From an uncultured Ruficoccus sp. (GTDB lineage Bacteria > Verrucomicrobiota > Verrucomicrobiia > Opitutales > Cerasicoccaceae): a stretch of DNA of 64,000 bases. The translations under genes were made by a program, and so were the position numbers. This document shows positions 32,635-47,226 of this stretch, in pieces; within the stretch, counting starts at the first letter, position 1; each line of letters opens with the position of its first letter. The notes beneath the pieces are model-generated. The model was not told the DNA's origin. It ran no database searches and saw nothing but the letters and a program-made list of their open reading frames with translations. The stretch covers positions 512,001 to 576,000 of the forward strand of contig OZ223481.1 of assembly GCA_965140785.1 (NCBI GenBank), written 5' to 3'.

Positions 32635-33923
32635 CGTGTTTGAGCGGCTTGGAAGGTTCCGAGGATGGGTTGGTTGACCAGCGTCTGAAGGGTGACGATC
32701 TGTTGCCAGGCGTCGGCGGCGGCTCGCCAGTAAAGGGTTTGGAGTTCGAGTACGTCGCGCTCGGTTTCGATGACATCAGGGATGTCTGAGCGCCCGCTTT
32801 CGTAGCTGGTGCGGGTGTTTTCGGCGGCCTGCTCGGCCAGTCCGAGCAGGTCCTCACCGTAAAGGCGCAGGCGGCGGTCGGCATCATGAAGCAGGGCCAG
32901 ACTGGCGCTCAGGTCAGCCTTGAGCATGTTGCGGCGACTGTCGTACTCGTTCTGCGAGGCGCGCATATTGGCCAGCGCTTCGGCGCGCGCGGCGCTATAT
33001 TTCTCGAACCAGATGGGCAGCGTGACGGCGACGGTAAAGCCCCAGGGGTCCTGTCCGGCATCCGGAGTGTTGGGGTTGATCGGATCGCCCAGTTGGACGT
33101 AGTTCAAACCGAGCGTGATGTCCGGATAGCTTTCCATCCGCGCAATCTCTCGGCGGGCTTCGGCGCTGTTGATTTTGCGCTCAAGCATGGCCAGTTCGGG
33201 ATTGTTTTCCTCCAGGGCCAGCCCCAGTGAGGGGCCGTCGGGCTCGTAAGAGGCAGGCGCCGCCCACTGCGGCCAGGGCAACACGCCGGTGCCCCCAATT
33301 GCCAGTAGCTCCTGTAGGCGTGCGGATTGAGCGATGCGTTTTTGCCGGAGGGTGGAGAGCGCGTCCTCGGCTTTGCCCAGTTCGACTTTGAGCCGCAACA
33401 GATCGTTCAAGTCATTGCCGGCTTTGACCTTTTCCTCGACGATCGGCTCCAGCCGCCCGAGCAGGTCCAGGTTTTTTCGGGTCAGCTCGATCGCCTTGCC
33501 CGTGTAGGCGTACTCGTAGTAGGCGATGGATACAGCCCGTGCGAGTGCGAGCTGCTGGTTCTGGTAGGCGAACCACAATGCCTCGGCTTCGGCCGAGGCT
33601 GCATCCTCGCGACTGCTGAGCTTGCCAAACCACGGGATCGTCTGGCTGAGCATAAAGACATTCTCCTGCGGACCGGTGCGGGTCTGGATCGCTTCGACGA
33701 AGTGGGTGACCTGAAACATGGGGTCGGGGAGGGCCGAGGCCTGCGGGATGCGTTTCATCGCCGCCTCATAGCGCGCTTCGAAGGTCTTGAGCTGCGGGTT
33801 CTCCCTCTGCGCCTGCTGGAGGTAATCCCGCAGGTTGGAGCCGACCCAGGGGGACTCCTGTGCGGATGCGCGACTCAGAAGGACGAGGCTGAAAAGGAGG
33901 ATTGAGTAAATAGGCCGGTGCAT
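32631..33923 (-). CDS. TolC/CusC-family outer membrane efflux protein
   Basis: Signal peptide, NPQL, LPDP, QTIPWFGK, YPDITLG; operon position. Confidence 0.88.
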   Translation of the reverse strand: MHRPIYSILLFSLVLLSRASAQESPWVGSNLRDYLQQAQRENPQLKTFEARYEAAMKRIPQASALPDPMFQVTHFVEAIQTRTGPQENVFMLSQTIPWFGKLSSREDAASAEAEALWFAYQNQQLALARAVSIAYYEYAYTGKAIELTRKNLDLLGRLEPIVEEKVKAGNDLNDLLRLKVELGKAEDALSTLRQKRIAQSARLQELLAIGGTGVLPWPQWAAPASYEPDGPSLGLALEENNPELAMLERKINSAEARREIARMESYPDITLGLNYVQLGDPINPNTPDAGQDPWGFTVAVTLPIWFEKYSAARAEALANMRASQNEYDSRRNMLKADLSASLALLHDADRRLRLYGEDLLGLAEQAAENTRTSYESGRSDIPDVIETERDVLELQTLYWRAAADAWQQIVTLQTLVNQPILGTFQAAQTR

Positions 33924-33984
33924 AATCAGGATCTCCACCGGGGGCGGCGGATATCCCATTTAACGCATCGTCACCGCCAAGCCC

Positions 33985-34554
33985 TTAAACTTTTTCCAGG
34001 CGCTCGCGCAGAAACTTCCGCGCGCGGTAGATGCGGGTTTCGACCGCTTTGACGCTGATCCCGAGGACGGCGGCGCACTCTTCCTGCGAGTTTTCCTCCA
34101 GCACGCAGAACACGAGCGGGAAGCGCAGCTTGTGCGGCAACTCTTCGATGGCGGCCTGCACCGCCTGGACAGACTCGCGGGCGTCCGCCTGGTTGGAGGG
34201 CGAGCGGCCGGAGCTTTCGATCATATCGCCCAGCCGTTGCTCGGAGTCCTCCCGGCGGGGAGAATCGAGCGAGATTTCTCCGCGACGTTTTTTCCGCCGC
34301 CGCAGGAAGTCCCGTCCCAGATTGGCCGCGATGGTGAAAATCCAAGTCCGTACGCGGGCCTTCGGGCGGAATCGGTGCGCGTATTTATACACGCGATAAA
34401 AAGTTTCGCTGGTCAGGTCCGCCGCGTCCGTTTCGTTGCCGCAGTAGCGCAGGGTGAAGTGAAAGACCGCTTCCTGATGGCGCCTCATCAGCGCGCTCAG
34501 GCCACTGTCGTCACCCTGCTGAATGCGCTCCAGAGCTGGCAAATCTTCGTCCAT
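33985..34554 (-). CDS. ECF sigma-70 factor (CnrH-like context)
   Basis: DLTSETF, TWIFTIAAN, LPHKLR, KAVETRIYRAR. Confidence 0.92.
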   Translation of the reverse strand: MDEDLPALERIQQGDDSGLSALMRRHQEAVFHFTLRYCGNETDAADLTSETFYRVYKYAHRFRPKARVRTWIFTIAANLGRDFLRRRKKRRGEISLDSPRREDSEQRLGDMIESSGRSPSNQADARESVQAVQAAIEELPHKLRFPLVFCVLEENSQEECAAVLGISVKAVETRIYRARKFLRERLEKV

Positions 34555-34569
34555 CGTCGTGGGCTGCGA

Positions 34570-35037
34570 TCATTCCGGCTGGCTGAGGGCTTCCACTGCG
34601 ATCTCGCGCAGTTTCGCCTGCTTATCCGGAGGCAGGACACTGAGCATGTCATAGTAATGCTCGATGGACAAGGTCTGCAATTGGCCGTGAACGACGTGAA
34701 GCCGGTGGACCGCGTCGTTGACTTCATCGGAGTAGCGGTCGTGGGTGCGCAGCAGTTCCGAGAGGGCGTCGATCCGCTGCTGAAAAGCCTCCAGTAAGGC
34801 CTCTCGCTGCTGGCGATACTCGAGATCAAAAGCGTCCAGGCGGGCCGATTCTGCGGGCGTGAGGTTCAGCTCGTGCCGCAGCCAGGCGTTTCCGGGAGGC
34901 TGGTCCTGGCTCGCCGTTTCATTGCCGATAACCAGGTGCGTGGTCAGAAACGAGACGCCAACGCAAACGCCGATAAGGATAAGGGTCAGCACCAGCAGCC
35001 GCTTGGCCGGGGCGGGGGAGGGGTCTTGAGTGTTCAT
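34570..35037 (-). CDS. periplasmic heavy-metal sensor (CnrX/NccX-like)
   Basis: N-terminal TM, ELNLTP, helical domain ending EHYYDML..LPP. Confidence 0.75.
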   Translation of the reverse strand: MNTQDPSPAPAKRLLVLTLILIGVCVGVSFLTTHLVIGNETASQDQPPGNAWLRHELNLTPAESARLDAFDLEYRQQREALLEAFQQRIDALSELLRTHDRYSDEVNDAVHRLHVVHGQLQTLSIEHYYDMLSVLPPDKQAKLREIAVEALSQPE

Positions 35038-35048
35038 AGCCGGGACGG

Positions 35049-35372
35049 TCACCGCTCGAACTTAACCAACTCGGTCTGTTTGACAAAGTCGAAATCCAGC
35101 GCCCGGCTGGCCGCAGCCTGTCGCTCGGTCTGATTCGCGTAAGCCGAAGCCGAGAAGGCGGTAATGACCGCGCTTCCCAGCGCGAAAAGGGCCACCCCCG
35201 CCATGATGGCAGCGCCGCTGGGAATGATATTCCAGGAAAACCAGCCGTGCGCTTCATCCCGCGATTCGGCCCGTATGCGCCGCCTCACCCGCGACTCCAT
35301 ATTCGCCGGGCACGGTGGGAGTTTTGCCTCCCGCATGCGCCTCAGCGCAGCCTCTATTTCACGATCGTGCAT
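35049..35372 (-). CDS. putative single-pass anti-sigma factor (CnrY-like)
   Basis: Short cytoplasmic helix (MESRVRRRIR) plus one TM; first gene of the sensor-sigma operon. Confidence 0.6.
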   Translation of the reverse strand: MHDREIEAALRRMREAKLPPCPANMESRVRRRIRAESRDEAHGWFSWNIIPSGAAIMAGVALFALGSAVITAFSASAYANQTERQAAASRALDFDFVKQTELVKFER

Positions 35373-35430
35373 GAATCCTTAAACGCACCCGCTTTCCCCA
35401 CCCCTCAAAAAACGTACAAATTTACATAAC

Positions 35431-35505
35431 TGGTGCCCCCACCGAGACTCGAACTCGGATTAACGGTTTAGGAAACCGCGGTTCTATCCATTGAACTATG
35501 AGGAC
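35431..35505 (-). tRNA. tRNA-Arg (anticodon CCT)
   Basis: Reverse complement GTCCTCA TA GTTC AATGGATA GAAC C GCGGT TTCCTAA ACCGT TAAT CCGAG TTCGAGT CTCGG TGGGGGC ACCA folds as a cloverleaf with encoded CCA. Confidence 0.96.
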
Positions 35506-35506
35506 A
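35468..35506 (+). repeat. left att core (39 bp, overlapping the tRNA 5' half)
   Basis: TTAGGAAACCGCGGTTCTATCCATTGAACTATGAGGACA, identical to 44460-44498. Confidence 0.95.
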
Positions 35507-35595
35507 ACCTGTTTATATAAAACGACTTACGATCCTGATGTCTTTGCCGTAGAATTGACTTGTCACCGAGTTTTGTAACCCCTTAGATTCAAGGT

Positions 35596-36672
35596 ATGCC
35601 AAAGACGAAGCCAGCCGACGCAGGAAGCGGCCAGTTCGTGAAGGTTGCTGAGAATCTATATCGGTATCAGCCATCAGGGGGTTACTATGCTTTGCTGAAA
35701 CGAGGCGGCAAGCAAATCCGCCGTTCGCTCAAGACTCAGGATCGCAAGCTGGCCGAGCGTCGTCTGGCCGATCTGCGCGAAAAGGTGGACCGCATCGACA
35801 CCAGCAAGGGCAAGACCAAGATCGAGTTTATGGAGGCCGCCCAGCTTTGGCTCGACTCGATGCAGCCACATCTCAAGCCCAGTTCGTTTCTTCGGCGGCA
35901 AACGAGTATCAAGCAACTCAAGCGGCATTTTGGCCGCCACTCGGTGCGAGCGATTACCCGCAAGCTTTGTGATGAATGGGCGAAGGCACGCAGTCCGCAG
36001 ATTGCAGCTTCCACGTTCAACAACGAGCGCGAGACTCTGGTCTCGATTTTGGATTACGCTGTGCGCGAAGGCTACCTCCTGGATAACCCCGCTCGCGTGC
36101 TCAAGCGTCGTCGCCAGGGCAAAACGCAACTCTCCATTCCGACCCGTGAGCAATTCCTCACGCTGGTGAAAACCCTCCGCAAGTTGGACCCGCGCTATTG
36201 GGCTGCTGCCGATCTGGTGGAGCTGCTCGCCTACTCGGGCATGCGCAAAGGGGAGGCTAACGCCATGCAGTGGGAGGATGTCGATTTTGACCGGGGGCAA
36301 TTCGTTGTCACCGGTGGCGTGACCGGAACCAAGAATTTAGATGTTCGCCACGTCCCGCTATTTCCTATCCTACGTGAGTTCCTGGCACGCCTGAAAGCCG
36401 ACTATGGCGACATAACTCCAACAGGTGACATTCTCCCGACCAAGAACGCCAAAAAGGCAATGGACGCTGCATGCAAGCAAGCCGAGCTCCCGCACTTCAA
36501 TCACCATAGCCTCCGCCATTACTTCGTGAGCAACGCCATCGAAAAGGGTATCGATTTCAAGGTCATCGCCCAATGGATTGGCCACAAAGACGGCGGCGTA
36601 CTTGTCGCCCAAACCTACGGCCACCTCCGCGATACACATTCGTTTGAGATGGCTAAATTAATGGATTCATGA
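35596..36672 (+). CDS. tyrosine recombinase/integrase
   Basis: N-terminal arm-binding region (IRRSLKT), SGMRKGE (R), HSLRH (HxxR), IGH, TYGH (Y). Confidence 0.95.
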   Translation: MPKTKPADAGSGQFVKVAENLYRYQPSGGYYALLKRGGKQIRRSLKTQDRKLAERRLADLREKVDRIDTSKGKTKIEFMEAAQLWLDSMQPHLKPSSFLRRQTSIKQLKRHFGRHSVRAITRKLCDEWAKARSPQIAASTFNNERETLVSILDYAVREGYLLDNPARVLKRRRQGKTQLSIPTREQFLTLVKTLRKLDPRYWAAADLVELLAYSGMRKGEANAMQWEDVDFDRGQFVVTGGVTGTKNLDVRHVPLFPILREFLARLKADYGDITPTGDILPTKNAKKAMDAACKQAELPHFNHHSLRHYFVSNAIEKGIDFKVIAQWIGHKDGGVLVAQTYGHLRDTHSFEMAKLMDS

Positions 36673-37364
36673 CTCCCGAAGATGAATTAACCGGTGGAAT
36701 TATACGGACGCTTCGTCAAGGTCTAATAAACAATTTAGGTAATAGCTTGCTCAATGACGATGAAAACGGAATGCCTCCCGATTGGGCTATTCACCTTTTC
36801 AGATTATCTGGTGTTGAGAAGGCTATAAGCGTATTACCTCAATTCATTGAGGCAATCGAAGGCTGCGAAGGTAATATTACGGATATACGCGCGAGTGGGC
36901 AACGGGCGGGGACCATCTCTGCCTTGTTTTTAGTGTTGCGTCATTACCTCAAGGAATTCCCACGCTTACAAGAACAGCTCTCAAAAGAAACATCCCGAGG
37001 TGAGGCGGAAATATCTTTTATTACCAATAGTATACTAGCTGAATGCTCAGGGCAATTTACCAATGCCATAGACAATGGGGAAACTCAGTATCTATTGGAA
37101 TTCACGAAAGCGTTCAGTATGCATCTTGACAATTGCATTGGAGAGCTGGAATTCAAAACGACAACAGCAACTCCCATATACATCGCCCTATCCCTACACT
37201 GGCCAACTATTGAGAAGATAAAGAATTTGCCTAGCCTACACTCTTGGCTATGCAAACAAATAGGCTCGCAACTCGTCGGAGATGAAGAGCGAATCAAGAA
37301 ACTTTTACAGCGAGCCGGCGTGAAGTTATTCAAGCCAGGACGCCCCAAAAACAGGGACACATAA
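36669..37364 (+). CDS. hypothetical protein, possible C-terminal DNA-binding region
   Basis: ATGA overlap with the integrase stop; AT-rich ORF; basic tail ending KPGRPK. Confidence 0.7.
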   Translation: MTPEDELTGGIIRTLRQGLINNLGNSLLNDDENGMPPDWAIHLFRLSGVEKAISVLPQFIEAIEGCEGNITDIRASGQRAGTISALFLVLRHYLKEFPRLQEQLSKETSRGEAEISFITNSILAECSGQFTNAIDNGETQYLLEFTKAFSMHLDNCIGELEFKTTTATPIYIALSLHWPTIEKIKNLPSLHSWLCKQIGSQLVGDEERIKKLLQRAGVKLFKPGRPKNRDT

Positions 37365-37415
37365 TTTTTCGGCTGTCCCTGTTTTAGGGAGATAAACTTA
37401 GCTATAGTCTAGCTC

Positions 37416-37610
37416 ATGAAAGCAAGAGCTAGATTACCTAAGCCTCGCCTCGCTTACACGAGAGAAGAGGCAGCCGAAGCACTCGGCCTGTCGGCGGTCA
37501 GTATCGACCGATTAACCAAGCGTGGATTGTTGCGCCCGTCGCGGGCAACGAGGCGTCCGCTATACTCGATCAGCGAAATACAGCGTTTCCTCCAGGAAAC
37601 GCGTGTCTAG
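37416..37610 (+). CDS. excisionase-like HTH protein
   Basis: AYTREEAAEALGLSAVSIDRLTKRGLL, MerR/Xis-type winged HTH of 64 aa. Confidence 0.85.
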   Translation: MKARARLPKPRLAYTREEAAEALGLSAVSIDRLTKRGLLRPSRATRRPLYSISEIQRFLQETRV

Positions 37611-37621
37611 GAGGGTGCGTC

Positions 37622-38641
37622 ATGGAAAACGAACATTGTTTTTCTTTGCCCCGCCCAAGGCCAAACACAGTCTTGCTGCAAGGTGGAGCGCAGCCGAAGG
37701 CGAGCAATACCTTGCGGCAGGACTGTAAAATTGGCCAGGCGGCGGCAAGGGAGATAACGCCAGCGTGTGGAGTAGGCGAGGCAGACGGCGGGACACTATC
37801 TCCATTCTACCCGAAATCGTGGTTTCACCCCATCGGAGTACTCAAGATAAGAAAAGAACTGCTTGAGCGTCTACCAGATGTCTCAGGATGCCTTTTTCTG
37901 ACCTTTACAGTAGACCCTAAGTTGTTTTCAGGGCCAGATTCCGCTTATAGTTATTCGAGGGATAAATTAAGAAAAATATTTTATCGATTACGCAATGGAG
38001 TCAATTGGGAGGGTAAACATTATAAAATTAATTCACCCTATTTCGTTAAAACGGAATTTCATAATAATGGCTTTGCTCATTACCATATAGTATTTCTGAC
38101 AAAGCGCTTTTTACCCGGTAATTTATTAAATCACCTTTGGGGCTTTGGTCGTACCAATGTTAAACGGATTTCCAATAAAGAATTCAATTACCTGCTTAAA
38201 TATGTTTCTAAAGGCAATGATTTACCCAATTGGGTTAAAGCTAAAAACCGCATTAGAATAGTTCAGCCATCTAAAGGCTTTTATTTAAAGCTTAATGAAT
38301 TAGCCAAAGGGCAGGACAATAGTAATCCTGAGCCTAAAAAGCGCAATTGCAGCGCGACTATTGGCGAACGAATTAACCTTTGGCGGCATAAAGCCGTGTT
38401 TCGTAAAGGAAAAAGGGCTTGGACCATTAAATTGGCCAAACCCTTCTTTGAAATCCTTTCGGAATTAATTCTCCCACTCGCCCAGACTGGCAAGTACTTG
38501 GGCGGGTGGACAATGAAAATCCTTAATATAGGAGAAATATCAAAATGGCTGATTCAACCAGCAAAAACAAGAATGAAATCAATATCCCTGAAAGCGGGAT
38601 TTATGTTCGGGGGGTCGTGGTCTCCAAGTCCTGCCGACTGA
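37622..38641 (+). CDS. rolling-circle replication initiator (HUH endonuclease)
   Basis: Motif I FLTFT, motif II EFH..G.AHYHIV, motif III YLLKYVSK (two Tyr); true start uncertain. Confidence 0.88.
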   Translation: MENEHCFSLPRPRPNTVLLQGGAQPKASNTLRQDCKIGQAAAREITPACGVGEADGGTLSPFYPKSWFHPIGVLKIRKELLERLPDVSGCLFLTFTVDPKLFSGPDSAYSYSRDKLRKIFYRLRNGVNWEGKHYKINSPYFVKTEFHNNGFAHYHIVFLTKRFLPGNLLNHLWGFGRTNVKRISNKEFNYLLKYVSKGNDLPNWVKAKNRIRIVQPSKGFYLKLNELAKGQDNSNPEPKKRNCSATIGERINLWRHKAVFRKGKRAWTIKLAKPFFEILSELILPLAQTGKYLGGWTMKILNIGEISKWLIQPAKTRMKSISLKAGFMFGGSWSPSPAD

Positions 38642-38883
38642 TAAACAAAAAAGATGGGTCTGGTCGACTTGTGCTCATTAAGCACGAGCTGGCTACACAG
38701 CCAGGAATGGCGGTTTGGGAAGAGTTCTTCGACCCTGCCCGAAACCCTGGAATCAAAATCGAGGGTGAGCAGGTCTCGACATGGCCACAGTGTGAGGAAT
38801 TCCAGCCTGTGACCCTGCGTGCTGAACGCTTCCGAATCGTTAACGAGACGCTTCACGTCTCAAACGCTGAGGTGATCAGCTAA
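38545..38883 (+). CDS. small beta-rich protein, putative ssDNA-binding (OB-fold)
   Basis: 112 aa, beta-strand pattern (IYVRGVVVSK), purine-rich RBS (AGGAGA), sits right after rep as in ssDNA replicons. Confidence 0.55.
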   Translation: MADSTSKNKNEINIPESGIYVRGVVVSKSCRLINKKDGSGRLVLIKHELATQPGMAVWEEFFDPARNPGIKIEGEQVSTWPQCEEFQPVTLRAERFRIVNETLHVSNAEVIS

Positions 38884-38914
38884 TGAACACCCGGGCGAAG
38901 GTCCAGAAGGACTG

Positions 38915-38949
38915 GCGGGCAGTCGCGCGAGAGCGCGACTCCCGCTTTT
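38915..38949 (+). terminator. GC-rich hairpin with T-tract (terminator and/or part of the replication origin)
   Basis: GCGGG-C-AGTCGCGC-GAGA-GCGCGACT-CCCGC-TTTT. Confidence 0.6.
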
Positions 38950-39039
38950 CCTTGTTTACATGAACAATAACTGTCAACTGGTCAATTGGTCGGGGGATTT
39001 CGGGCTTCACTTAAAGGATGGATGTCGCATTCTTTGTGC

Positions 39040-41052
39040 ATGCCTGAAAGCACTCTAAGCCTTACGAGTTTTTTTACAATTCCGAGTACAGATCACTCTT
39101 CCGAGTTATTTACTGCTGCCGCGCAGACGCACATTGAGGCACTTTTAACCGAAAAGAAGGGAAAGGCATACATAAAATGCCAAGTACGTGGTAAAGAAGT
39201 AGTTGCAAAGCAAGAAGAGATTGTTCGGCAGTTTTGGATTTACCGTCTTGAGCATCATTATGGATACCCTCTCAAGCGCCTTGCTGTAGAGTATCCCGTT
39301 ACCTTTGGCCGAGATACCTCAAAACGAGCGGATATTGTTATATTTGATGCGGATAGGCCTACGGTGCCTTACATTATCGTTGAAGTCAAAAAGACCAAAG
39401 AAAGTGAAGGTAAGGAACAGCTGCGCTCTTATTGCCACGCGACTGGCGCACCATTAGCTATCTGGTCAAACGGGGAACAATTCGTTTCCTGGCACCGCAA
39501 GAATCCAAATTACTTCGTTGAAATCCCCGATGTCCCCGCTTGCAACCAGACGTTGGAGGAAGTTATCAACCAGCCTTGGGATATTACAACCTTGCTGGAA
39601 TTCGAGCAAGAGCGCGAAAAAGAAGGCTTAGCTGCTCGTAGCCTTAAAGACCTTATCAAGGGTATGGAGAATGAAGTTCTGGCCAATGCGGGAGTCGATG
39701 TCTTTGAGGAGGTTTTTAAGCTTATCTTCACTAAGCTTTACGATGAGTTGTCTGTTTATCGAAAGAGCTACAAGCATCTGCGCTTCCGGAATACCGACAC
39801 TGCCGCCAAGGTCAAGGAACGCATTCAGCAGCTATTTGAGGAGGCGAATAAAAAATGGCATGGTGTGTTTCCAGAGGGTGAACGCATCCGGCTAACGCCA
39901 GATCACTTGCAAGTTTGCGTGGGTTCACTGGAGCAATACAAGCTGTTCAATAGCAATTTGGACATTATTGACGATGCGTTTGAATACTTGGTCAGTAAGT
40001 CTTCTAAAGGCGAGAAGGGACAGTACTTTACGCCTCGTTGGGTGATCGACATGTGCGTAAAAATGCTCAATCCAACCAAGGATGAGTATTTGATAGATAC
40101 TGCGTGCGGCTCCGCTGGATTCACCATGCATGCGGCCTTTAAGGTATGGGGCGATATCTGTGATGAAATCGGAGTCGACAGGCACGAGCTTTTTTCTGCC
40201 GCTGATAAACCTCAGCCATGCAAAGACTACATCAAAGACAAGGTTTATGGGATCGATTTTGATGAAAAATCGGTCCGAGTCGCACGCTGCCTGAATATGA
40301 TCGCGGGCGATGGCGAAACAAATGTGCTCCATCTTAATACGCTCGATTATAACCGTTGGGACGAAACCGTCAAAGATGAGGACTGGACTGATACCTATAG
40401 CACAGGCTGGCGTGGTTTGAAAAATCTGCTTGCCCGTAAAAAGGACTACCGTGACCTGCGCTTTGATGTGCTGATGGCTAACCCACCTTTTGCGGGAGAT
40501 ATTAAACAGCCTGACATGCTCAGCCCGTACGAGCTCGCTCACAAGGCAAATGGCAAAGCTGAAAGTAAGGTTGGGCGTGACCTGCTCTTTATTGAGCGCA
40601 ATCTAGATTTCCTCAAGCCTGGCGGTCGTATGGCCGTGGTTCTTCCTCAAGGCCGCTTTAACAACGCCAGCGACAAGCGGGTCCGTGAGTATATTGCCGA
40701 ACATTGCCGCATTCTGGCTGTGGTTGGATTGGAGGGTAATACCTTTAAGCCTCATACGGGAACCAAAACGAGCGTTCTCTTTGTCCAAAAGTGGAACGAT
40801 GACTCAGAGGTTGGGCCGCTCTGTCCACACGTCGATGATTACAATATCTTCTTTGCCACTCAGCAGCTTCCCGCCAAAGATACCCGAGGAGAACGCATTA
40901 TCGCCCGCGATACCGACGGCAAACTTTTACGCGATAAGCACGGCCACTGGATTGTCCAGCATGACCTTTACAATCATGATGGACTCACACAAGATGGCAT
41001 CGCTGAGGCTTTTCAGGAATTTGCCGCTAAGGAGCGATTGTCTTTTTTTTGA
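39040..41052 (+). CDS. fused restriction endonuclease (HsdR-N-like) / N6-adenine methyltransferase, Type IIG/IIB-like
   Basis: EEIVRQ, RADIV..IVEVKK nuclease motif; GQYFTPR, DTACGSAGF, NPPF. Confidence 0.9.
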   Translation: MPESTLSLTSFFTIPSTDHSSELFTAAAQTHIEALLTEKKGKAYIKCQVRGKEVVAKQEEIVRQFWIYRLEHHYGYPLKRLAVEYPVTFGRDTSKRADIVIFDADRPTVPYIIVEVKKTKESEGKEQLRSYCHATGAPLAIWSNGEQFVSWHRKNPNYFVEIPDVPACNQTLEEVINQPWDITTLLEFEQEREKEGLAARSLKDLIKGMENEVLANAGVDVFEEVFKLIFTKLYDELSVYRKSYKHLRFRNTDTAAKVKERIQQLFEEANKKWHGVFPEGERIRLTPDHLQVCVGSLEQYKLFNSNLDIIDDAFEYLVSKSSKGEKGQYFTPRWVIDMCVKMLNPTKDEYLIDTACGSAGFTMHAAFKVWGDICDEIGVDRHELFSAADKPQPCKDYIKDKVYGIDFDEKSVRVARCLNMIAGDGETNVLHLNTLDYNRWDETVKDEDWTDTYSTGWRGLKNLLARKKDYRDLRFDVLMANPPFAGDIKQPDMLSPYELAHKANGKAESKVGRDLLFIERNLDFLKPGGRMAVVLPQGRFNNASDKRVREYIAEHCRILAVVGLEGNTFKPHTGTKTSVLFVQKWNDDSEVGPLCPHVDDYNIFFATQQLPAKDTRGERIIARDTDGKLLRDKHGHWIVQHDLYNHDGLTQDGIAEAFQEFAAKERLSFF

Positions 41053-42499
41053 CTAGCCCTTTCAACCAAGCTCGTTACGAGCAATTGTTGGAAGGGCTAG
41101 AGGCAATTGAAATTTCGCGAGAACATTTGATGGATGATAATGGCTATTTTCGTCTAGATGCTGAATTTTATAAAAAAGCTTATGAAAAAGTCATAATGCT
41201 AGTTAAGTCATTTGGAGCAAAGCAATTAAAGGAAATATCTCCTACAATCATTCACCCTACAGAAATCAAGCGTGAGTATGAAGAAGAGGGCGGAACATGG
41301 TTTTTCCGGACACAGAATCTAAGACCTTTATCAATCGAAAAGAACAATGATGTTTTTGTTTCTACGAGTGATGCGGAAAAGCTAAATAAAAATATAATTA
41401 GAAATGGAGATGTTCTTGTGACGCGTACAGGAGCTAATTTTGGTGATTGCGCATATTTTAATTTGGACGAATCCCCAATCGCAAGCTCTCATGTATTAAT
41501 TATACGAAACAGGTCTCTTTCTCAGCCTTTTCTATCTGTTTTCTTAAATTCAAGATATGGTCGTCTCCAAATTAATAAAGGCGCCTATGGGGGGGTCCAA
41601 CCCGAGGTGTCTCCATACTACTTGAGAAACATATGGATACCTGAATTTACTAGGGAGCTCATCCATGAAATTGACGGTAATATTTCGAAAGCACGTGTTA
41701 AAAAGGAGCAAAGTCAAGAGTTGGCTGCTCAGGCGGAGGCAACGCTTTTAGATGAATTAGGCTTGGCTAACTGGACACCGCCCGAGCCATTGTCATACAC
41801 CCGCTCCGCCAAAGAAGTTTTCACCGCAGAGCGACTGGATGCAGAGCATTTCAAGCCTAAATACGATGACCTTATTTCTAGGCTTGCTTCAAATAGTCAA
41901 GAGGTTGTGTCTTTGGGAAGCATAGTCCAACCCATACGAAATGGTTTTGACTTTCGGGAATATGAAGAGTCTGGAACTCCCTATATTCGAGTGGGCGATA
42001 TACATCATGGGCGAATAGATATAGTAGAGGCCAAGAGAATCAGGTTGAACTTTAGTTCTATTAAGAAAAATATAAAACTAATGCATGGCGATGTTCTTTT
42101 TACCCGCAAGGGTAGCTATGGAAATGCCGCAGCGGTTCGTGGAGATGAAGATGGGGCAGTTATTAGTAGCGAAATTATGCTACTAGACTTAATGGAAAGG
42201 GAAGAAAGGTTATGCCTCAATTTTTGGCTACATATTTAAATAGTGTAGCTGGTGCACTTCAATCAGAAAAATGGGCACATGGGGTCGCCTTTTACAGCAT
42301 ATCTCAAGCAGACCTTTCACGTTTTATAATTCCAATACCAGAATGGACCGTACAACAAGAAGTTGCTAAAAGGCTTGAATTGTCAGAAACGGTACGTCGA
42401 GATGCCATTGTGCTATTAGACAAAGCAAAAAGCGCAGTGGAAATCGCCATTGAAGATGGTGAAGTTGCGGCAATTGAATACTTGAAAGGAGATCGGTAA
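41049..42499 (+). pseudogene. restriction-modification specificity subunit (HsdS-like), frameshifted near 42185
   Basis: Two TRD-like repeats (RLDAEF/RLDAEH, GDVL.TR.G..G). One extra A near 42185 would join it to ORF 42212-42499. Confidence 0.8.
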
Positions 42500-43302
42500 T
42501 GCCTGCCGGTAATCAAGAAAATCTCATGCAATGGCTCGACCAATCAACTGTCGATTATTTTACCTGTTTTGTAAAAGCATGGATTCCTTTTAATGCCTGG
42601 TATCGCTATAACTACCCTAGCATCCAGCAAGAGAGGCAGATTCTTGATGCGATAAAAAGTGATGGTAACCGAATGCGCTCAAGGTTTATCGCTCGGATTG
42701 ATCAAGATGGCACTGAGGGTGAAGAGTTACGTCATTGGATAGCCATACTGCATAAGCGCTTGGCAAATGACCCATTAAATTCACCGAAAATGGGATTGGT
42801 GTCCTTCGAGAATGTATTTACCGGTTATAATACTAAAAATAGTTCCGTGATTAAAATAAAACACTGGTTCTACAAAGTTGAAAAAATCACTTCCCCTCAA
42901 AAAAAATACGTGGCCACAGTTACAAGTAATAGAGGCCGTGAAGACTTTAGGTTGGAACAGGAAGGAGACTGGGATTTGGAGAGATTTTCAAATGATGCTC
43001 GTTTAGTGGCATATAACAAAAACGATCAAGCATACTTGATTGATAGATATAAGGAAATAAACCCCAAGGTATATGTTAGTCTCCTGTGTGATAATGAAGA
43101 ATGCTGTGTGATTCTAGGAGAGTATAAATTTACCAGCGACAAGGAAGCGCTCTTTGCAGGGTTAATAGAAATTCTCTATTGCCTGCGGAATATGCTTTTT
43201 CACGGAGAACTGGTGCCCGATAAAACAACAAACTCAACTTATGAGCCAGCATACCATATTTTACGTAGGCTCATGCGCTACATTGTAGGCCATCAAGACT
43301 AA
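42499..43302 (+). CDS. HEPN-superfamily protein (putative RNase effector)
   Basis: N-terminal FVKAWIPFNAWY and C-terminal LYCLRNMLFHG (Rx4H); TAATG coupling to the S subunit. Confidence 0.7.
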   Translation: MPAGNQENLMQWLDQSTVDYFTCFVKAWIPFNAWYRYNYPSIQQERQILDAIKSDGNRMRSRFIARIDQDGTEGEELRHWIAILHKRLANDPLNSPKMGLVSFENVFTGYNTKNSSVIKIKHWFYKVEKITSPQKKYVATVTSNRGREDFRLEQEGDWDLERFSNDARLVAYNKNDQAYLIDRYKEINPKVYVSLLCDNEECCVILGEYKFTSDKEALFAGLIEILYCLRNMLFHGELVPDKTTNSTYEPAYHILRRLMRYIVGHQD

Positions 43303-43321
43303 CCCCAGCGTCAATACGACA

Positions 43322-44230
43322 ATGCCAGTACCTACTTACCAAGAAATGCTTCACCCCATTCTGACTTTAGCTGCTCAGGAACCTATCAAACGCAGCACGG
43401 CATCTGAGGCTATGGTGGAGCATTTTAATCTCAGCGATGCAGAAGCCCAGGAAGTACTTCCTAGCGGGAGTGCAACCTATGTTCAAAACCGCACGGGTTG
43501 GGCGATGACATTTCTCACTAAAGCGTCACTCATTGAAAAAGTCGCCAAGGCGACCTATGCCGCTACTGACTTAGGCCATGAATTCCTGAGAAGGTATCCC
43601 AATGGCTTTACTGAAAAAGACCTGCACCAAATCGACGGGTATCAAGAAGCTTGGCAATCCAGTAGAAAAGCAAAAAGAAAAACTTACACTCAGGAAAGCG
43701 AAGAGGAAACACCCGATGAGATTGTCGACAACGCGATGACGACGTTGTTTGCCAAGTTGAAGTCAGAAGTTCTGGCGCAGACTAAGACAATGGAGCCATT
43801 GCGATTTGAAAAACTCGTTTTGGATTTGATGCTGAAAATGGGCTATGGCGGTTCACGCGAGAATGCAGGCCGTTTGACTCAAGCTACGGGTGATGGTGGT
43901 GTCGATGGGCTCATCAATGAGGATAAGCTTGGCCTTGATGTCATATACCTCCAAGCAAAGCGGTATACCGAAACTGTTGTTGGCCGACCTAAGATTCAAG
44001 AGTTTGTAGGTGCTCTAGCTGGAAAGCAGGCAAATAAGGGCGTCTTTATTACAACGAGCACCTTCACTCAGGGAGCGATAGATTTTGCGAATGCCGTGCA
44101 GCAAAAAATCATACTTATCGATGGTGAAAAATTGGCAGCGCTAATGATCGAACATAACCTAGGCGTGTCTACAGAGCGAACTTACTCTATCAAGCGCATA
44201 GACTCAGATTATTTTGAGGTAGATGTGTAG
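43322..44230 (+). CDS. mrr: Mrr-family type IV restriction endonuclease
   Basis: Mrr_N (PTYQEML, NRTGWA..FL.KA) and Mrr_cat (GDGGVDG, YLQAKRY, GVFITTS.F, IDG..LA). Confidence 0.93.
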   Translation: MPVPTYQEMLHPILTLAAQEPIKRSTASEAMVEHFNLSDAEAQEVLPSGSATYVQNRTGWAMTFLTKASLIEKVAKATYAATDLGHEFLRRYPNGFTEKDLHQIDGYQEAWQSSRKAKRKTYTQESEEETPDEIVDNAMTTLFAKLKSEVLAQTKTMEPLRFEKLVLDLMLKMGYGGSRENAGRLTQATGDGGVDGLINEDKLGLDVIYLQAKRYTETVVGRPKIQEFVGALAGKQANKGVFITTSTFTQGAIDFANAVQQKIILIDGEKLAALMIEHNLGVSTERTYSIKRIDSDYFEVDV

Positions 44231-44240
44231 GCCGCTGTAA

Positions 44241-44332
44241 GTTTTGTAACCCTGACGGGTTACAAAACTGCTGATTCTGCGAACCGTTTACCTTTTACTC
44301 GTGGTTCTTTTTGCACCCTGATTTTGTAACCC
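44241..44332. promoter_or_regulatory. putative integrase arm-type sites
   Basis: GTTTTGTAACCC-TGAC-GGGTTACAAAAC (44241-44268) and TTTTGTAACCC (44322-44332); the same 12-mer occurs at 35570-35581. Confidence 0.7.
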
Positions 44333-44459
44333 GAGGTGAAAATTTGGGCGTTTTCGGGATAATCCGAGATTATCAGCGAATTCCAGAAGTCACTTTTTTT
44401 GAGCGACTTGATGACTCGGGATTATTTGTGCAAATTGCTGAATATCAGTGCTTTTTGCG

Positions 44460-44498
44460 TTAGGAAACCGCGGTTCTATCCATTGAACTATGAGGACA
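44460..44498 (+). repeat. right att core: duplicated 5' half of tRNA-Arg
   Basis: Identical to 35468-35506; covers tRNA nt 1 to the end of the anticodon loop. Confidence 0.95.
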
Positions 44499-44533
44499 GT
44501 TGAAAATCAGTGTTTTACGTAATTTTGACCTGC

Positions 44534-45514
44534 CTACGCAAACTGTACCGCATTGAGAGTTAGTCTGAGCGGGTTAATGATGTGATTTAGGGTTAGGTTG
44601 TAGAGGGTGTCAAGGCTTGGGCGCAAGGAGGGCGTAGCCCGAGTGTAGCCCATGCCTTGGAAGTTGATGTCGAAGGGGGTTGGTGCGGTTTCTTTGGCTG
44701 CAAACTCGAGCGGCGTGAGCAGTCCGAGTGAACGGTGCGGGCGGATGTTGTTGTATTTCCACCTCCAGTCCTCAATGACCACGCGTGCCTCGGTGAGCGT
44801 ATAAAACCACTCGCGGTTGAGGCACTCATCGCGGAGTCTGCCGTTGAAGGATTCTATGTAGCCGTTCTGCCAGGGACTGCCCGGCTCAATGTAGAGCGTC
44901 TTGATCTCCTCGTCCGCGTACCATTTACGCAGGCTCTTCTCGATAAACTCGCTGCCGTTGTCGCTACGGATGTGCTCGGGGCTGCCGTAGGCACTGATCA
45001 ACTCGCTCATGACGGCTCGCACCTTGGCGGCGTTGAGGTGGCGATCGACGTGGATGCACAGGCACTCACGGGTGTACTCATCGAGTACCGTGAGCATGCG
45101 GATTGATCCGCCCTTAGCCGTACGGTCGGCCACGAAGTCGCAGGTCCACACGTGGTTGCGATGAGTAGCCTTTGTCGGTAAGCCCGTCGAGGGGCCGCGC
45201 CGACGCTGACGAGGCTTCTTAGTCGGACACTTCAGCCCCATCTCCTGGCGCAGGCGCTGCACCAGCCGCTTACCTACGTCCCAACCATCGCGCTTGAGTA
45301 GATGAGTGATTTTCGGGTAACCCAGCTCGGGATGCGCTTCGCTCTTGCGACGCAAAGCCCCACGTAACTTTGCCAACCAGGGCGTAGTCTCCTTCGCCTG
45401 ATAGCCGAAGGTACTGCGATGCAACCCAAAGTGACGGCAGGCCGCCCGCGCTGAACATCTGCCCTGCGACACCAGAGTTTGCGCCATCTCGCGCTTGTGT
45501 GCAGGGCTTACCAT
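44534..45514 (-). CDS. IS3 transposase OrfB (DDE)
   Basis: WTCDF, DEYTRE, RSDNGSEF, PWQNGYIESFNGRLRDE, YNNIRPH. Confidence 0.95.
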   Translation of the reverse strand: MVSPAHKREMAQTLVSQGRCSARAACRHFGLHRSTFGYQAKETTPWLAKLRGALRRKSEAHPELGYPKITHLLKRDGWDVGKRLVQRLRQEMGLKCPTKKPRQRRRGPSTGLPTKATHRNHVWTCDFVADRTAKGGSIRMLTVLDEYTRECLCIHVDRHLNAAKVRAVMSELISAYGSPEHIRSDNGSEFIEKSLRKWYADEEIKTLYIEPGSPWQNGYIESFNGRLRDECLNREWFYTLTEARVVIEDWRWKYNNIRPHRSLGLLTPLEFAAKETAPTPFDINFQGMGYTRATPSLRPSLDTLYNLTLNHIINPLRLTLNAVQFA

Positions 45515-45774
45515 TTTTTTTCGAGCGCCTCCTTCAGCAGCTCCTTACCAAGTATCTCGTCCGCCAGCATACGCTTCAGCCGAGCGTTCTCCTTTTGCAG
45601 TTCCTTCAGTTGCTTGGCCTGATCGACTTCCAGCATCCCAAGCTCCCGCTTCCAGCGGTGGAACGTCTGCTCGCTGATCCCTGCCTCGCGGCAGACATCC
45701 ACGATCGCTCTGCCAGCATCAGCGGCGCGTAAAATGCGGATTTTTTGCTCTGTACTGTATCGCTTGCCTTTCAT
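45508..45774 (-). CDS. IS3 transposase OrfA (HTH + leucine zipper)
   Basis: VCREAGISEQTFHRWK, LKELQKENARLKR. Confidence 0.95.
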   Translation of the reverse strand: MKGKRYSTEQKIRILRAADAGRAIVDVCREAGISEQTFHRWKRELGMLEVDQAKQLKELQKENARLKRMLADEILGKELLKEALEKKW

Positions 45775-45837
45775 CGTCTGAGTCCTTTCTAAGCACTCAG
45801 ACTAACTTTGCAAGTGGCACAGTTTAAGTGGACACGG

Positions 45838-46320
45838 TCACTTGCTCTTGCCCCGTTTGAAAAGCCAATTACAAAAAAAGCCAAACGCAACACACGCCCC
45901 AAGGATCATTCGTCCCGACCTGAAATCGGTATTTGTCACGCCCGAGACGAAGGCAACAACAAGCCCGAAAACAATCAGGCCGATTGGAGCCGCGATGATC
46001 GCGACCCCCGATTTCTTAGTCCAGTGCCAATCCTCGGGAGTCGAGCTATCAGTACCGACCTTCGCATTCTTACCCGGTTTTACCTGCCGGTTCGAGATCT
46101 GTTTGGGGGCAGGGGGGGGGGTGAGGCTTGCGGAGGTTTCGGGGGCATTTTCATGTCGCCGAGATCCACGACATCACGGATAGCTCGCCAATCCGTCATC
46201 CCTTCCTTCCAGCACAGGTCGTAGAATCCCAACGTGCCCTCGGAAAGCCGTTGACGAATGTTCTTCTCGTCAATGGGGCCACTCTGCTCACCGCCTCTGA
46301 TGATGTAGTAACTAGCCATC
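45838..46320 (-). pseudogene. GYF-domain (DUF4339-like) membrane protein, frameshifted in a G10 tract and abutting the IS
   Basis: YYI..G.QSGP...LCWKEGMTDW GYF_2 pattern, Pro-rich linker; the shifted frame continues into two TM helices and stops at the IS terminal TGA. Confidence 0.7.
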
Positions 46321-46593
46321 GGACAACCAACCTCCAGCGAAGGCATTCAACATATAAATCAGCCAGACGACCAATAAGACGATTGCGGCCACCTTGTTGG
46401 ATACTCCCCAACGCTTTAGTTGCCCGCTTTCATCGGTCTTGTTGAAATAGACCGGCCCCGTCAGTACAATAATGCACACAATCAGGACCCCCGGGAATAG
46501 TCCCGCAGTAAGCAGATTTACCAAAAAGAGTATGTTGCATGAGTTGGAGCGCCGAAGCCTTTCATCGAAAACGTGCGAAGCTACTGCTTTCAA
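46312..46593 (-). pseudogene. C-terminal fragment of a membrane protein
   Basis: Hydrophobic helices (VLTGPVYF...NKVAAIVLL); no convincing start; stop overlaps the GYF gene start. Confidence 0.45.
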
Positions 46594-47226
46594 CTGCTGA
46601 GATTGCGAGTGTTGGGGATATTATCACGGCAATCTGGCGATCGACCAACCAAAGGAAACCCGGTAGTCAAGAGGTACGCGAACTGAGCCGAGTAGCCCGT
46701 TAGTCTGGTGTGTCGTTTGGCACGATCAGCCCAACTGACTGGTTCTATTTTTAAACCAGACAAAAGGACTCGTATGAAGGTGAATCTAGGTGTTCTTATT
46801 ACATGGATGAGTTGGTTCGCAGTATGGCAAAAAATATTTAGCAATTGGCGATTTGATCCTCGCGCCCGACCGCAAGCTTTACGATCCCGCTTTGCGACCG
46901 TGGAGCTCCACGGGAGAGCCCGCTTCTGGAGGGGAGGGGGGCGTCGTGCATACTGCGACTCAATCCCGTTGAAGTGCAAGCTACCGAAGGTATTCACTTC
47001 TGCTGGGCTAAACTACAGGACCGTCCAGGAACAGCGCGGACTTTGGGAGGCGTGCTTGCTCTCCAAGGCAAAGAAATCTCTTTTACAGATGAGGCCGGCC
47101 GTGGAAGAGGCGCTGTTGCGTTACGATTTGCGTGGAGCCCCGCTTGTTGTGTAATTTTGATACACAACTCGAAGGTGACCGGGTTTGTCTGGGGTAACTC
47201 AAATAATAAGAACAAAGACTGGCGAT

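Follow-up and report, generated by a model that had tools for sequence, protein, structure and literature searches.

A tRNA-associated integrative island of Verrucomicrobiota that combines an inovirus-like replication module with a variable defense cargo

We asked what kind of element is located at the tRNA-Arg(CCT) gene in the window, by which we mean the entire 64-kb stretch of DNA analyzed, and by which means such an element could replicate and move. The tRNA adjoins a nine-gene unit of about 9 kb that is enclosed by 39-bp repeats and is low in GC content (0.41 to 0.52, versus about 0.60 to 0.63 in the left flank); its intergenic gaps measure 50 to 230 nt, and all nine genes are on the + strand, as stated in the original prediction. 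Judged from its sequence, and with a probability of about 0.6, we read the unit as an excisable island that would replicate as a rolling circle by means of an inovirus-derived module and that probably travels as a hitcher of inoviruses. The 39-bp terminal direct repeats from which the unit had been delimited were recovered as exact copies, namely, attL (35468 to 35506) and attR (44460 to 44498), with a spacing of 8992 nt, and this pair is the longest repeat family within positions 33000 to 47000. Analysis with ARAGORN placed tRNA-Arg(CCT) on the - strand at 35431 to 35505. Its first 38 nt (5') lie inside attL, and the 39-nt repeat corresponds to the 5' half of the tRNA (base 1 up to the anticodon loop), a displaced copy of which is attR. 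The repeats of genomic islands usually correspond to the tRNA 3' half. Since the repeat is here the 5' half, the tRNA has the island on its upstream side and receives from it both this half and the upstream region. The integrase gene starts 90 nt from the tRNA 5' end, and the two are divergently transcribed. A search of the genome for a second full-length copy of tRNA-Arg(CCT), at an identity of at least 80%, found none. According to the corresponding report (10.1101/2020.11.02.365908), Klebsiella islands of integrase clade I.d are located upstream of tRNA-Arg and share this rare use of the 5' side; their host and backbone are unrelated to those of the island, and the likeness concerns the target side only. 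An IS3 copy directly adjoins attR.

The gene int (35596 to 36672, +) encodes a tyrosine integrase (PF00589 Phage_integrase, 67.7 bits; phrog_1, 203 bits), and xis (37416 to 37610, +) encodes a Xis/AlpA-like HTH_17 excisionase-regulator (PF12728, 31.1 bits; phrog_66). These family matches agree with the integrase and Xis-like HTH protein anticipated earlier and point to a discrete integrative element. The sequence TTTTGTAACCC, a candidate arm-type binding site for Int/Xis, occurs in four exact copies in the 64-kb window, every one at the island ends. One copy is found at 35571 to 35581 (+), and three are found at the right end within 44240 to 44332 (44242+, 44257-, and 44322+), the first two of which constitute an inverted repeat of 13 nt. 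None of 100 shuffles contained at least four copies, and the motif is also present at the end of a sibling element (L097). Int and Xis probably bind these sites on both arms, and Int with its Xis/AlpA-like partner would recombine a core of about 39 bp; since this core is the tRNA 5' half, integration would replace this half together with the sequence upstream of the gene. Between int and xis lies orfX (orf231; 231 aa; 36669 to 37364, +), which was assigned by its position in the backbone and has no family match. Its product is all-alpha with a basic GRPK tail and is hypervariable (mean column identity, 16 to 18%), yet its position is kept: in 75 of 89 loci, xis is directly preceded by an ORF of at least 150 aa. 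No fold match was found for its AF2 model (pLDDT, 76.6).

The island is very likely competent for excision. In two congeners, tRNA-Arg(CCT) is present without int or rep beside it, which represents an unoccupied site. Neither an attP circle junction nor an empty attB was detected in the contigs of two sequencing runs, a type of assembly from which rare variants are dropped. The contig depth of the island (8.7) is in effect not above that of the right flank (8.3). The single long "skip" joint, from 35933 to 44528, is accounted for by another int copy at a different place on the contig, which is truncated by IS3. Terminal overlaps that would indicate circularity were found in 0 of 80 metagenome contigs. 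Every metagenome contig with enough flank beside int carried a full tRNA there, and these contigs are therefore integrated copies; in contig L124, no full tRNA was found beside int.

Downstream of xis, a gene at 37622 to 38641 (+), the true start of which may be farther downstream than 37622, encodes an HUH rolling-circle Rep with the motifs FLTFTV, H-Y-H, and YLLKYVSK. Residues H153, H155, Y190, K193, and Y194 (HUH and Y-x3-Y) are invariant across 18 homologs. The only family matched was PF23343 (REP_ORF2-G2P, 49.2 bits), which sustains the assignment to the filamentous-phage type rather than to the IS91 or relaxase families; a sibling Rep gave a weak match to RepSA (22.3 bits, under the cut-off). 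The following gene (38545 to 38883, +), described previously as encoding a small beta-rich protein, was correctly characterized: its 112-aa product has no family match, and its AF2 model (pLDDT, 86.2) is an OB fold. The model reached Z scores of 6.2 to 7.9 against OB domains of SSB, RPA, and PriB, although the tool warns that values below 8 can be common, and according to this model the protein is probably an ssDNA-binding protein. Folding of the downstream region revealed a GC-rich hairpin (38915 to 38945, +), the structure of which is kept while its sequence is not. Hairpins of at least 10 bp were present in 53/53 sequences folded (median dG, -23.3; median z, -5.3), and we consider this element a candidate minus-strand origin, packaging signal, or terminator. 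It is followed by a T-run and could simply be an intrinsic terminator. The conserved motif CCTTGTT-N10-AATAACTGTC (38950 to 38975, +) is a candidate plus-strand origin (nick region). In 53 of 74 sources, its general form, CCTTGTT-N10-12-AATAACTGTCC, was found together with the hairpin 3' of the OB gene, and the CCTTGTT motif is present in 37 of 47 metagenome loci; the whole genome contains one copy only of this origin motif.

The same arrangement was found in an inovirus (L079/L066; Zot, 55.3 bits) from another genome of the same bacterial lineage. The Rep of this inovirus matches the island Rep in tblastn searches (E, 3e-45), and the protein that follows it, in the gV position, is a homolog of the island OB protein (hhalign, 94.5%; E, 7.7e-8). 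After the OB gene there is a hairpin with AGCTTGTCC-N9-AATAACTGTCC, which is related to the island motif. Since Rep, OB protein, and hairpin-motif are common to the island and a Zot-encoding inovirus, this comparison identifies the three-part replication module as inovirus derived. The hairpin with CCTTGTT-N10-12-AATAACTGTCC after the OB gene and the occurrence of the same arrangement in a Zot-encoding inovirus are new in this analysis. In the mechanism that we propose, the excised circle is probably nicked by the HUH Rep at CCTTGTT...AATAACTGTCC and then copied by rolling circle, the displaced single strand is probably coated by the OB-fold protein, and the GC hairpin beside the motif probably acts as the complementary-strand origin, a packaging signal, or both. 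Rolling-circle replication of the island is likely in our view.

We recovered the backbone, composed of Int, the hypervariable orfX, Xis, the HUH Rep (PF23343), and the OB-fold protein, from 73 loci in genomes and from 205 metagenome stretches. The sampled genome matches all belong to one order of Verrucomicrobiota, within which they cover four families. Among 74 genome loci, rep is present in 73, the OB protein gene (sm112) in 62, int in 50, and xis in 42. In 39 of the 44 loci that contain both int and rep, a tRNA adjoins int, and in 24 of these 44 we found repeats of 22 to 45 nt that equal the 5' half of the adjoining tRNA. These 24 repeat-delimited elements have sizes of 3.8 to 12.3 kb, and their repeat is the tRNA 5' half in every case (24/24); many different tRNAs serve as targets across the family. 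An 8.6-kb island with SIR2-based cargo (G007) occupies the same tRNA (Arg CCT), and its identity to the window is 78% for int, 81% for xis, 66% for rep, and 57% for the OB protein. The cargo of the window was found in 0 of 74 genome loci; with the 24 delimited elements, this bears out the expectation that the backbone is found repeatedly at tRNA genes and that its cargo varies. The island shares its anatomy and homologous genes with the members of this family, within which the cargo is turned over. Sequence comparison places it in a widespread and conserved family, apparently so far undescribed, whose members are small site-specific integrative elements of a single order of Verrucomicrobiota.

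The lack of morphogenesis genes and of junctions in the contigs would also be expected from a decayed inovirus prophage, i.e., an immobile relic with leftover rep genes that persists as a fixed defense locus. IS3 at attR and a truncated sibling int 21 kb away are likewise signs of decay at this hotspot. We nevertheless regard a relic as very unlikely. The repeats are exact, the backbone ORFs are all intact, and the catalytic residues are invariant; a compact backbone without morphogenesis genes is found in at least 70 loci, 24 of which have intact repeats and differing cargo; and the sites in congeners are unoccupied. Exact repeats, intact ORFs, recurrence, and empty sites thus indicate a maintained lineage and not independent decay.

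How an excised island would move is the next question. Among the ten island ORFs, no match was obtained to the Zot (PF05707), coat, capsid, relaxase, T4SS, and FtsK/TraB families, so the reported absence of Zot/pI, coat, capsid, and T4SS genes holds. Zot, coat, T4SS, and conjugation genes were likewise not found in the 173 ORFs of relatives scanned (150 + 23). Without morphogenesis or transfer genes, the element must depend on something else to move, and among the candidates for transfer we tentatively place packaging by a helper inovirus first. A search for a coresident inovirus, as originally suggested, revealed a prophage with Coat_B, Zot, and Rep on contig C39 of the same genome. The earlier reading of the locus as a helper-dependent integrative rolling-circle element is thus supported in part: three of the checks put forward with it had the expected outcome, and two findings named as contrary to it, a Rep of the IS91 or relaxase type and relatives that always carry morphogenesis genes, were not made. 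The relationship between the coresident Rep and the island Rep is at the motif level only (BLASTP E, 0.054; hhalign, 0.4%), and neither an OB homolog nor a shared origin motif was found in this prophage. In the viral collection, only one contig matched, a true inovirus with no island character.

The unrelated origin of the coresident inovirus, as well as the lack of virion-associated copies in the viral collection and of circular contigs among the 80 metagenome contigs, would fit rolling-circle replication without a phage helper. The module would then only retain the excised circle, and the island would spread by vesicles, transformation, or vertical descent. AICEs and ICEs likewise keep the excised circle from loss, and an int-xis-rep logic of the pSAM2 type is described in PMC2440964; the RepSA match of the sibling Rep points in the same direction. 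However, conservation of the rep-OB-hairpin-motif block with an inovirus suggests that cis elements for ssDNA handling were retained, and the distribution over four families and many tRNA targets implies effective horizontal spread; a helper-free island is therefore unlikely. Alternatively, the HUH Rep could in principle be a relaxase and the conserved site an oriT, in which case the island would be an integrative mobilizable element that uses a conjugative helper. The presence of Int and Xis and of a conserved cis site, as well as the lack of transfer genes, is consistent with this possibility, and there is a precedent in streptococcal IMEs, in which proteins related to rolling-circle Reps reportedly work as relaxases (PMC5357655 and PMC5704250). 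It is highly improbable given that VirB4 (PF03135) and T4CP (PF02534) were not found in the genome (completeness, 90.85%), that Rep matches the filamentous-phage Rep family only and no relaxase Pfam family, that the OB protein and the hairpin-motif are common to a Zot-encoding inovirus, and that conjugation genes are absent from the 173 ORFs of relatives.

A stronger form of the inovirus hitcher reading is that the elements are true integrative inovirus satellites that act as order-wide defense shuttles; as a family, they would be the first to encode a tRNA-targeting integrase themselves and the first to occur outside Proteobacteria. We hold this reading to be doubtful. If so, only the inovirus rep-ssb-origin/packaging block would have been kept, and ssDNA would be shipped in the filament of the helper. 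The target tRNA would have its 5' half and its promoter region replaced, so that its expression would be tied to the element, and orfX might be a helper-sensing or immunity switch, by analogy to the divergent SaPI Stl repressors.

To our knowledge, filamentous-phage satellites are few, namely, RS1, TLC, and pDolos, and all known defense-carrying satellites ride tailed phages. RS1 and TLC of Vibrio cholerae (CTXphi) are integrated, have kept the replication module, and lack morphogenesis genes, and the island resembles them in all three aspects. They integrate via the host XerCD at dif and have no tRNA-targeting tyrosine integrase, the Rep of RS1 is the same as that of its helper, and we know of no defense cargo slot in either. 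PICI and P4-like satellites have the order int, AlpA-Xis, and replication, followed by variable defense cargo, and they employ primase-helicase replication, tailed-phage helpers, and capsid-redirecting genes; the island is similar in gene order but has neither primase-helicase nor capsid-redirecting genes. AICEs are elements of Actinobacteria that integrate at the tRNA 3' end and have a transfer gene of the FtsK/TraB type, whereas the island has no FtsK/TraB translocase, uses the tRNA 5' half, and has a Verrucomicrobiota host. It shares with AICEs such as pSAM2 the int-xis-rep (HUH) arrangement at a tRNA gene, and AICEs are copied by rolling circle after excision, as stated in PMC2440964. The report on pDolos (10.1101/2023.11.28.569023) describes a rolling-circle plasmid with Rep and a 109-aa putative SSB that is packaged by the Shewanella inovirus Dolos. 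Like this satellite, the island is small, encodes Rep and a putative SSB of about 110 aa, and has extra genes and no morphogenesis genes. In contrast, pDolos is a free 2.9-kb plasmid of a proteobacterial host, has no integrase, Xis, or att, and is packaged by its helper, whereas for the island such packaging is a proposal and the likeness is drawn by description. Tycheposons, as portrayed in 10.1101/2020.12.28.424599, also combine a tRNA-targeting tyrosine recombinase and xis with a replication module and with a cargo module that varies, and they build tandem arrays at tRNA hotspots. Their replication involves primases, helicases, and polymerases instead of an HUH Rep and an OB protein, and their hosts are marine cyanobacteria and others; this comparison is again by description. 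RS1 is mentioned in PMC11389934.

In this family, which is common in an order that has been little studied, an inovirus replication block is joined with an integrase and with a defense slot of variable content. Such a combination would extend the idea of defense islands on hitchers to filamentous phages and Verrucomicrobiota. The family also offers a candidate Rep nick site, a structured hairpin, and candidate arm-type sites, and its integrase clade, which is unusual in being consistently on tRNA 5' halves, could serve as a recombination tool.

The cargo occupies a slot 3' of the candidate origin and consists, in the window, of a fusion protein with an S subunit, an R-x4-H protein, and Mrr and, in relatives, of other defense or toxin-antitoxin genes. 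PADLOC matches were obtained in 9 of the 24 delimited elements (retron II-A, Gabija, type II and type III RM, SIR2, and others), and three further elements contain toxin-antitoxin genes; the unannotated cargo genes of sibling elements are candidates for new defense systems. In the window, the first cargo gene (38986 to 41052, +) fuses a PD-(D/E)xK nuclease-like domain and an N6-adenine methyltransferase in one ORF (HSDR_N_2, PF13588, 96.8 bits; N6_Mtase, PF02384, 114.5 bits; PADLOC PDLC03034, 1117.8 bits). BcgI-like (type IIB) RM systems consist of a nuclease-methyltransferase fusion and a separate S subunit, and the single ORF for HSDR_N_2 and N6_Mtase, followed by an S subunit gene, matches this layout at the level of gene arrangement only. 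The MADS defense system was considered and rejected, as the scores for MAD2 (314 bits; NCBIfam cut-off, 720) and MAD5 (143 bits; NCBIfam cut-off, 400) are too low and other mad genes are absent. The orf267 protein (42499 to 43302, +) was delineated by homolog alignment; it has 181 homologs, in 26 of which R230 and H235 are invariant. Its earlier designation as HEPN is upheld at the motif level, by the R-x4-6-H motif characteristic of the HEPN superfamily (here R-x4-H) and by the UniRef name of one homolog ("Apea-like HEPN"), but not by a Pfam family, for which no match was found. The last gene (43322 to 44230, +) encodes a type IV restriction endonuclease of the Mrr type (Mrr_cat, 125.8 bits; Mrr_N, 65.7 bits; PADLOC mREase_IV, 285.8 bits). 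The specificity (S) subunit gene (41049 to 42499, +), identified by family and PADLOC matches, is frameshifted in the window near 42184 and appears as two ORFs (41049 to 42239 and 42212 to 42499). In the Logan contigs of both runs (2/2), one additional A after 42184 joins the S frames into about 483 aa, and the split in the window is thus probably an assembly error.

The island is bounded by exact 39-nt direct repeats (35468-35506 and 44460-44498), the end repeats of the original prediction, which form the longest repeat pair within the 33- to 47-kb segment. The only tRNA gene of the window, tRNA-Arg(CCT), is located at 35431-35505 on the minus strand, and on this strand the repeat extends from base 1 of the tRNA through the anticodon loop, i.e., over its 5' half. 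The island is therefore placed upstream of the tRNA gene and provides its 5' half and upstream region. Integration into tRNA genes usually duplicates their 3' part. The upstream side is rarely used, although an integrase clade of Klebsiella is reported to do so (10.1101/2020.11.02.365908). The GC content is about 0.60 to 0.63 in the left flank as opposed to 0.41 to 0.52 in the island interior, and in two genomes of the same genus tRNA-Arg(CCT) is present with neither int nor rep adjoining it. A promoter scan of the minus strand revealed no sigma-70-like site for the tRNA, and the single site before int on the plus strand was not above chance.

All genes are co-oriented, as had been predicted, and lie on the plus strand. 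They encode (i) an integrase (PF00589), (ii) Orf231, here termed OrfX, which matched no family, (iii) an HTH_17 protein (Xis), (iv) a Rep protein (PF23343 REP_ORF2-G2P, 49.2 bits), (v) a 112-aa protein that matched no family, (vi) a fusion of HSDR_N_2 and N6_Mtase (PADLOC PDLC03034, 1117.8 bits), (vii) an S subunit that is split in the window, (viii) Orf267, with an invariant R-x4-H motif and matches in the atlas to unnamed clusters only, and (ix) a type IV Mrr protein (Mrr_N and Mrr_cat). The nuclease-methyltransferase fusion with an S subunit is an architecture that we take to be BcgI-like type IIB. The contigs of both sequencing runs contain one extra A after 42184, which returns the S gene to a single frame, so that the frameshift is probably an assembly error. 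Membership of the cargo in MADS was rejected, since the NCBIfam MADS models scored below cut-off. Zot, coat, capsid, relaxase, and T4SS families had no match among the island genes, in agreement with the predicted absence of Zot, coat, capsid, and T4SS genes; the island lacks defining features of an inovirus (Zot and coat) and of an AICE (a translocase).

The replication module consists of Rep, the 112-aa protein, and a noncoding block. The HUH residues H153 and H155 of Rep, as well as Y190, K193, Y194, and K197, are invariant in 18 aligned homologs, and a sequence search against solved structures gave no credible match (best E value, 0.069). Rep has an N-terminal extension (37622-37790) that is not conserved apart from QGGAQPKASNTL, which is kept in 4 of the 18 homologs, including P0002, P0004, and P0036; since most homologs start near residue 60, this stretch may be a conserved DNA/RNA element or a subclade-specific extension. 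The 112-aa protein, predicted from the sequence to be small and beta-rich, was modeled confidently as a beta barrel (pLDDT 86.2), and its best structural matches were almost all nucleic-acid-binding OB domains (RPA, SSB, PriB, and the PolC OB domain), with Foldseek E values of 6e-3 to 0.1 and VIA Z scores of 7.9 to 6.2, values below 8 being only moderate by VIA's own note. The noncoding block is located 3' of the OB gene and was present in 53 sources; of the total of 74, only 62 extend at least 700 nt after rep. It comprises, in this order, a GC-rich hairpin (38915-38945 in the window), a short T-rich or TTAA linker, and the motif CCTTGTT-N10-12-AATAACTGTCC (38950-38975; a single occurrence in the genome), the letters of which are invariant or nearly so; among metagenome loci, 47 were long enough to contain the strict motif, and 37 of these have it. 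The hairpins have at least 10 pairs in 53/53 cases (median DNA dG, -23.3 kcal/mol; median z, -5.3), and their stem sequences differ widely, indicating that the structure is what is conserved. The motif, a candidate nick site, resembles the T-rich/AATA contexts in which phiX174 gpA and f1 gpII nick. Furthermore, the 64-kb window contains four copies of TTTTGTAACCC, all of them at the island ends (35571+, 44242+, 44257-, and 44322+), and at least four copies were obtained in none of 100 shuffles; together with their recurrence in a second element of the host genome (see below), the copies fit candidate Int/Xis arm-type sites of an attP.

A large protein collection contained 357 relatives of Rep, of which the named ones belong to Opitutales and Puniceicoccales genera and carry the NCBI name "rolling circle replication-associated protein"; a metagenome collection added 205 further relatives. 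Even sampling of the phylum (401 genomes) yielded 14 genomes with Rep, all of the window's own order, with family-level carriage of 3/3 (f1), 3/26 (f17), 6/35 (f18), and 1/5 (f13). We gathered 74 genome loci with a Rep profile and compared them with the island genes by BLAST. Matches were obtained for rep in 73 loci, the OB protein in 62, int in 50, xis in 42, and orf231 in 5, and for the RM fusion, S, orf267, and Mrr genes in none. The loci follow two layouts, int>..xis>rep>OB> and xis>rep>OB>..<int, in both of which int is divergent from an intact tRNA gene. Among the 44 loci with int and rep, a tRNA gene lies beside int in 39, and a repeat of 22 to 45 nt bounds an element of 3.8 to 12.3 kb in 24; in each of these 24, the repeat is the tRNA 5' half. 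The tRNA genes used as targets include Arg-CCT, Arg-TCT, Thr-CGT, Met-CAT, and Leu-TAA. The proposed search for the backbone in other genomes thus showed that it recurs at tRNA genes with changing cargo. For example, a family-level relative (G007) has an 8.6-kb island at tRNA-Arg(CCT) with 38 of 39 core nucleotides identical and with 78% (int), 81% (xis), 66% (rep), and 57% (OB protein) identity; its SIR2-based cargo is unlike that of the window. OrfX appears to be a fifth backbone component by position, since 75 of the 89 loci have its gene directly 5' of xis. Its mean column identity is 16 to 18%, and the window and G007 proteins are 15% identical, against 78% for the integrases; the C terminus retains a basic ...IGL...GRPK tail. 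The OrfX model is all-alpha (pLDDT 76.6); no match was found in Pfam, NCBIfam, PHROG, or PADLOC, nor by Foldseek below an E value of 1, the atlas gave no usable result, and a profile search retrieved two proteins only.

We scanned 100 cargo ORFs from the 24 delimited relatives with PADLOC and obtained matches in 9 elements, namely, retron II-A, Gabija with SIR2, a type III RM with a DpdB-like protein, a type II RM with a PDC-M71 kinase pair, NsnA, an NsnB-like ATPase, PDC-S15, PDC-S57, and a capP-like protein. Another three of the 24 contain MazF, PIN, or MazE-PIN modules, and the rest of the cargo matched no family. Morphogenesis and conjugation families were absent from the 150 + 23 ORFs scanned in relatives.

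The sole match in a viral collection, in which no islands were found, was L079, a 6.65-kb inovirus sequence from another genome that is identical to part of a prophage locus (L066). It encodes a Zot protein (55.3 bits), a PF23343 Rep (tblastn E value, 3e-45) that is 28 to 44% identical to island Reps and, directly after Rep, a 139-aa homolog of the OB family (hhalign, 94.5%; E value, 7.7e-8), followed 3' by a GC hairpin and ATTTTAGCTTGTCC-N9-AATAACTGTCC. A three-part block is therefore common to the islands and a bona fide filamentous phage. Taken together, these data agree with an island that carries its own rolling-circle module, derived from an inovirus, and has its cargo slot 3' of the origin; the island would excise, produce ssDNA, and be transferred. 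A proven satellite of an inovirus is the RCR plasmid pDolos, which encodes Rep and a small SSB (10.1101/2023.11.28.569023). The island resembles pDolos, RS1, and TLC in having a replication block and no morphogenesis genes, AICEs in its int-xis-rep logic, and tycheposons, PICIs, and P4-like satellites in combining an integrase that targets tRNA genes with a replication module and a variable defence/cargo slot. Full-text searches of main articles retrieved no description of such elements in Verrucomicrobiota, for which the family, combining features of known satellite and island kinds, is apparently new. Because the island has no transfer genes, keeps a phage-type hairpin-origin block, and has a precedent in pDolos, we rank hitch-hiking on an inovirus first among the transfer routes, with a probability of roughly one in three. 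Mobilization by a conjugative element appears very improbable; neither VirB4 nor T4CP was found in the host genome, which is 90.85% complete.

The search for a coresident inovirus was successful: contig C39 of the host genome (265200-272150; L077:5700-12650) harbors an inovirus-like prophage with a GC content of about 0.51 to 0.58, versus 0.62 for the host, encoding Coat_B (25.9 bits), a 404-aa protein in the pIII position, Zot (46.3 bits), and a 314-aa HUH Rep whose PF23343 score of 22.8 bits is below cut-off. A close relationship of this prophage to the island module was rejected, since the Reps are alike at the motif level only and the prophage has no OB homolog and no origin motif in common with the island. 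A second element of the island architecture is present on C22 (L097:7098-13311) at tRNA-Met(CAT), where a 40-bp repeat coincides with the tRNA 5' half. It contains int (55% identical), a PIN gene, a 252-aa ORF in the orfX position, xis, a divergent Rep (PF23343, 37.1 bits) that is 30% identical to that of the C39 inovirus (E value, 1.6e-31), and TTTTGTAACCC in the same arrangement; no OB homolog was found in it. Beside the C39 prophage (L077:12750-19500), the GC content is 0.34 to 0.46 and a 331-aa RVT_1 reverse transcriptase is encoded, followed by about 3 kb at 0.19 to 0.30 GC. At another locus (L007:12484-12762), a weak Zot-like tblastn match (29% over 93 aa; E value, 1.3e-9) lies just past the tRNA gene bounding a 3.8-kb element.

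Logan contigs of two sequencing runs contained neither an attP (go-back) joint nor an 8,992-nt attB (skip) joint, and their depth gave no sign of island amplification. A joint from 35933 to 44528 was rejected as evidence of excision, as it is explained by a second int fragment truncated by IS3. Terminal overlaps indicative of circular forms were found in 0 of 80 metagenome contigs; one of the metagenome contigs, L124, has int downstream of rep and no tRNA-like sequence. The missing junctions and circles, the lack of island matches in the viral collection, and the mismatched resident inovirus count against inovirus hitch-hiking. However, ssDNA circles are poorly represented in standard dsDNA libraries and contig-level data, so that the junction, circle, and viral-collection negatives weigh little. 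Of the readings that dispense with a helper, replication serving maintenance only is unlikely, and an element that is now a relic is less probable still; inovirus hitch-hiking is retained as the leading candidate among the transfer routes.

An IS3-family element (~44525-45840; orfA, HTH_Tnp_1; orfB, rve) abuts attR, and its depth of ~100, against ~8.7 for the island and its neighbors, suggests many copies in the host genome or in cosampled DNA. About 1.6 kb past the window end (C10:577607-578072; L094:2607-3073), the tRNA-Arg 5' half recurs as a third, partial copy, which is followed by an int fragment (aa 1 to 113; 97% identical) cut by another IS3 copy; this arrangement indicates that tRNA-Arg(CCT) is a repeatedly used hotspot. 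The second and third att copies are 21 kb apart; the intervening DNA (45800-64000 in the window) has a GC content of 0.46 to 0.57 and encodes an alpha-L-fucosidase, AraC and GntR regulators, a DHDPS-family enzyme, a BNR-repeat protein, and dehydrogenases; this segment may be an older cargo island or result from IS-mediated rearrangement. On C25 (L096:11785-13021), an integrase of the same clade (51% identical) is divergent from tRNA-Leu(CAA), with an adjoining tblastn xis match (75% identity) and IS (rve) fragments nearby; no Rep was found there. Finally, a PF23343 match (34.1 bits) in a 161-aa open frame at C10:72935-73246 (L180) is possibly a Rep remnant.
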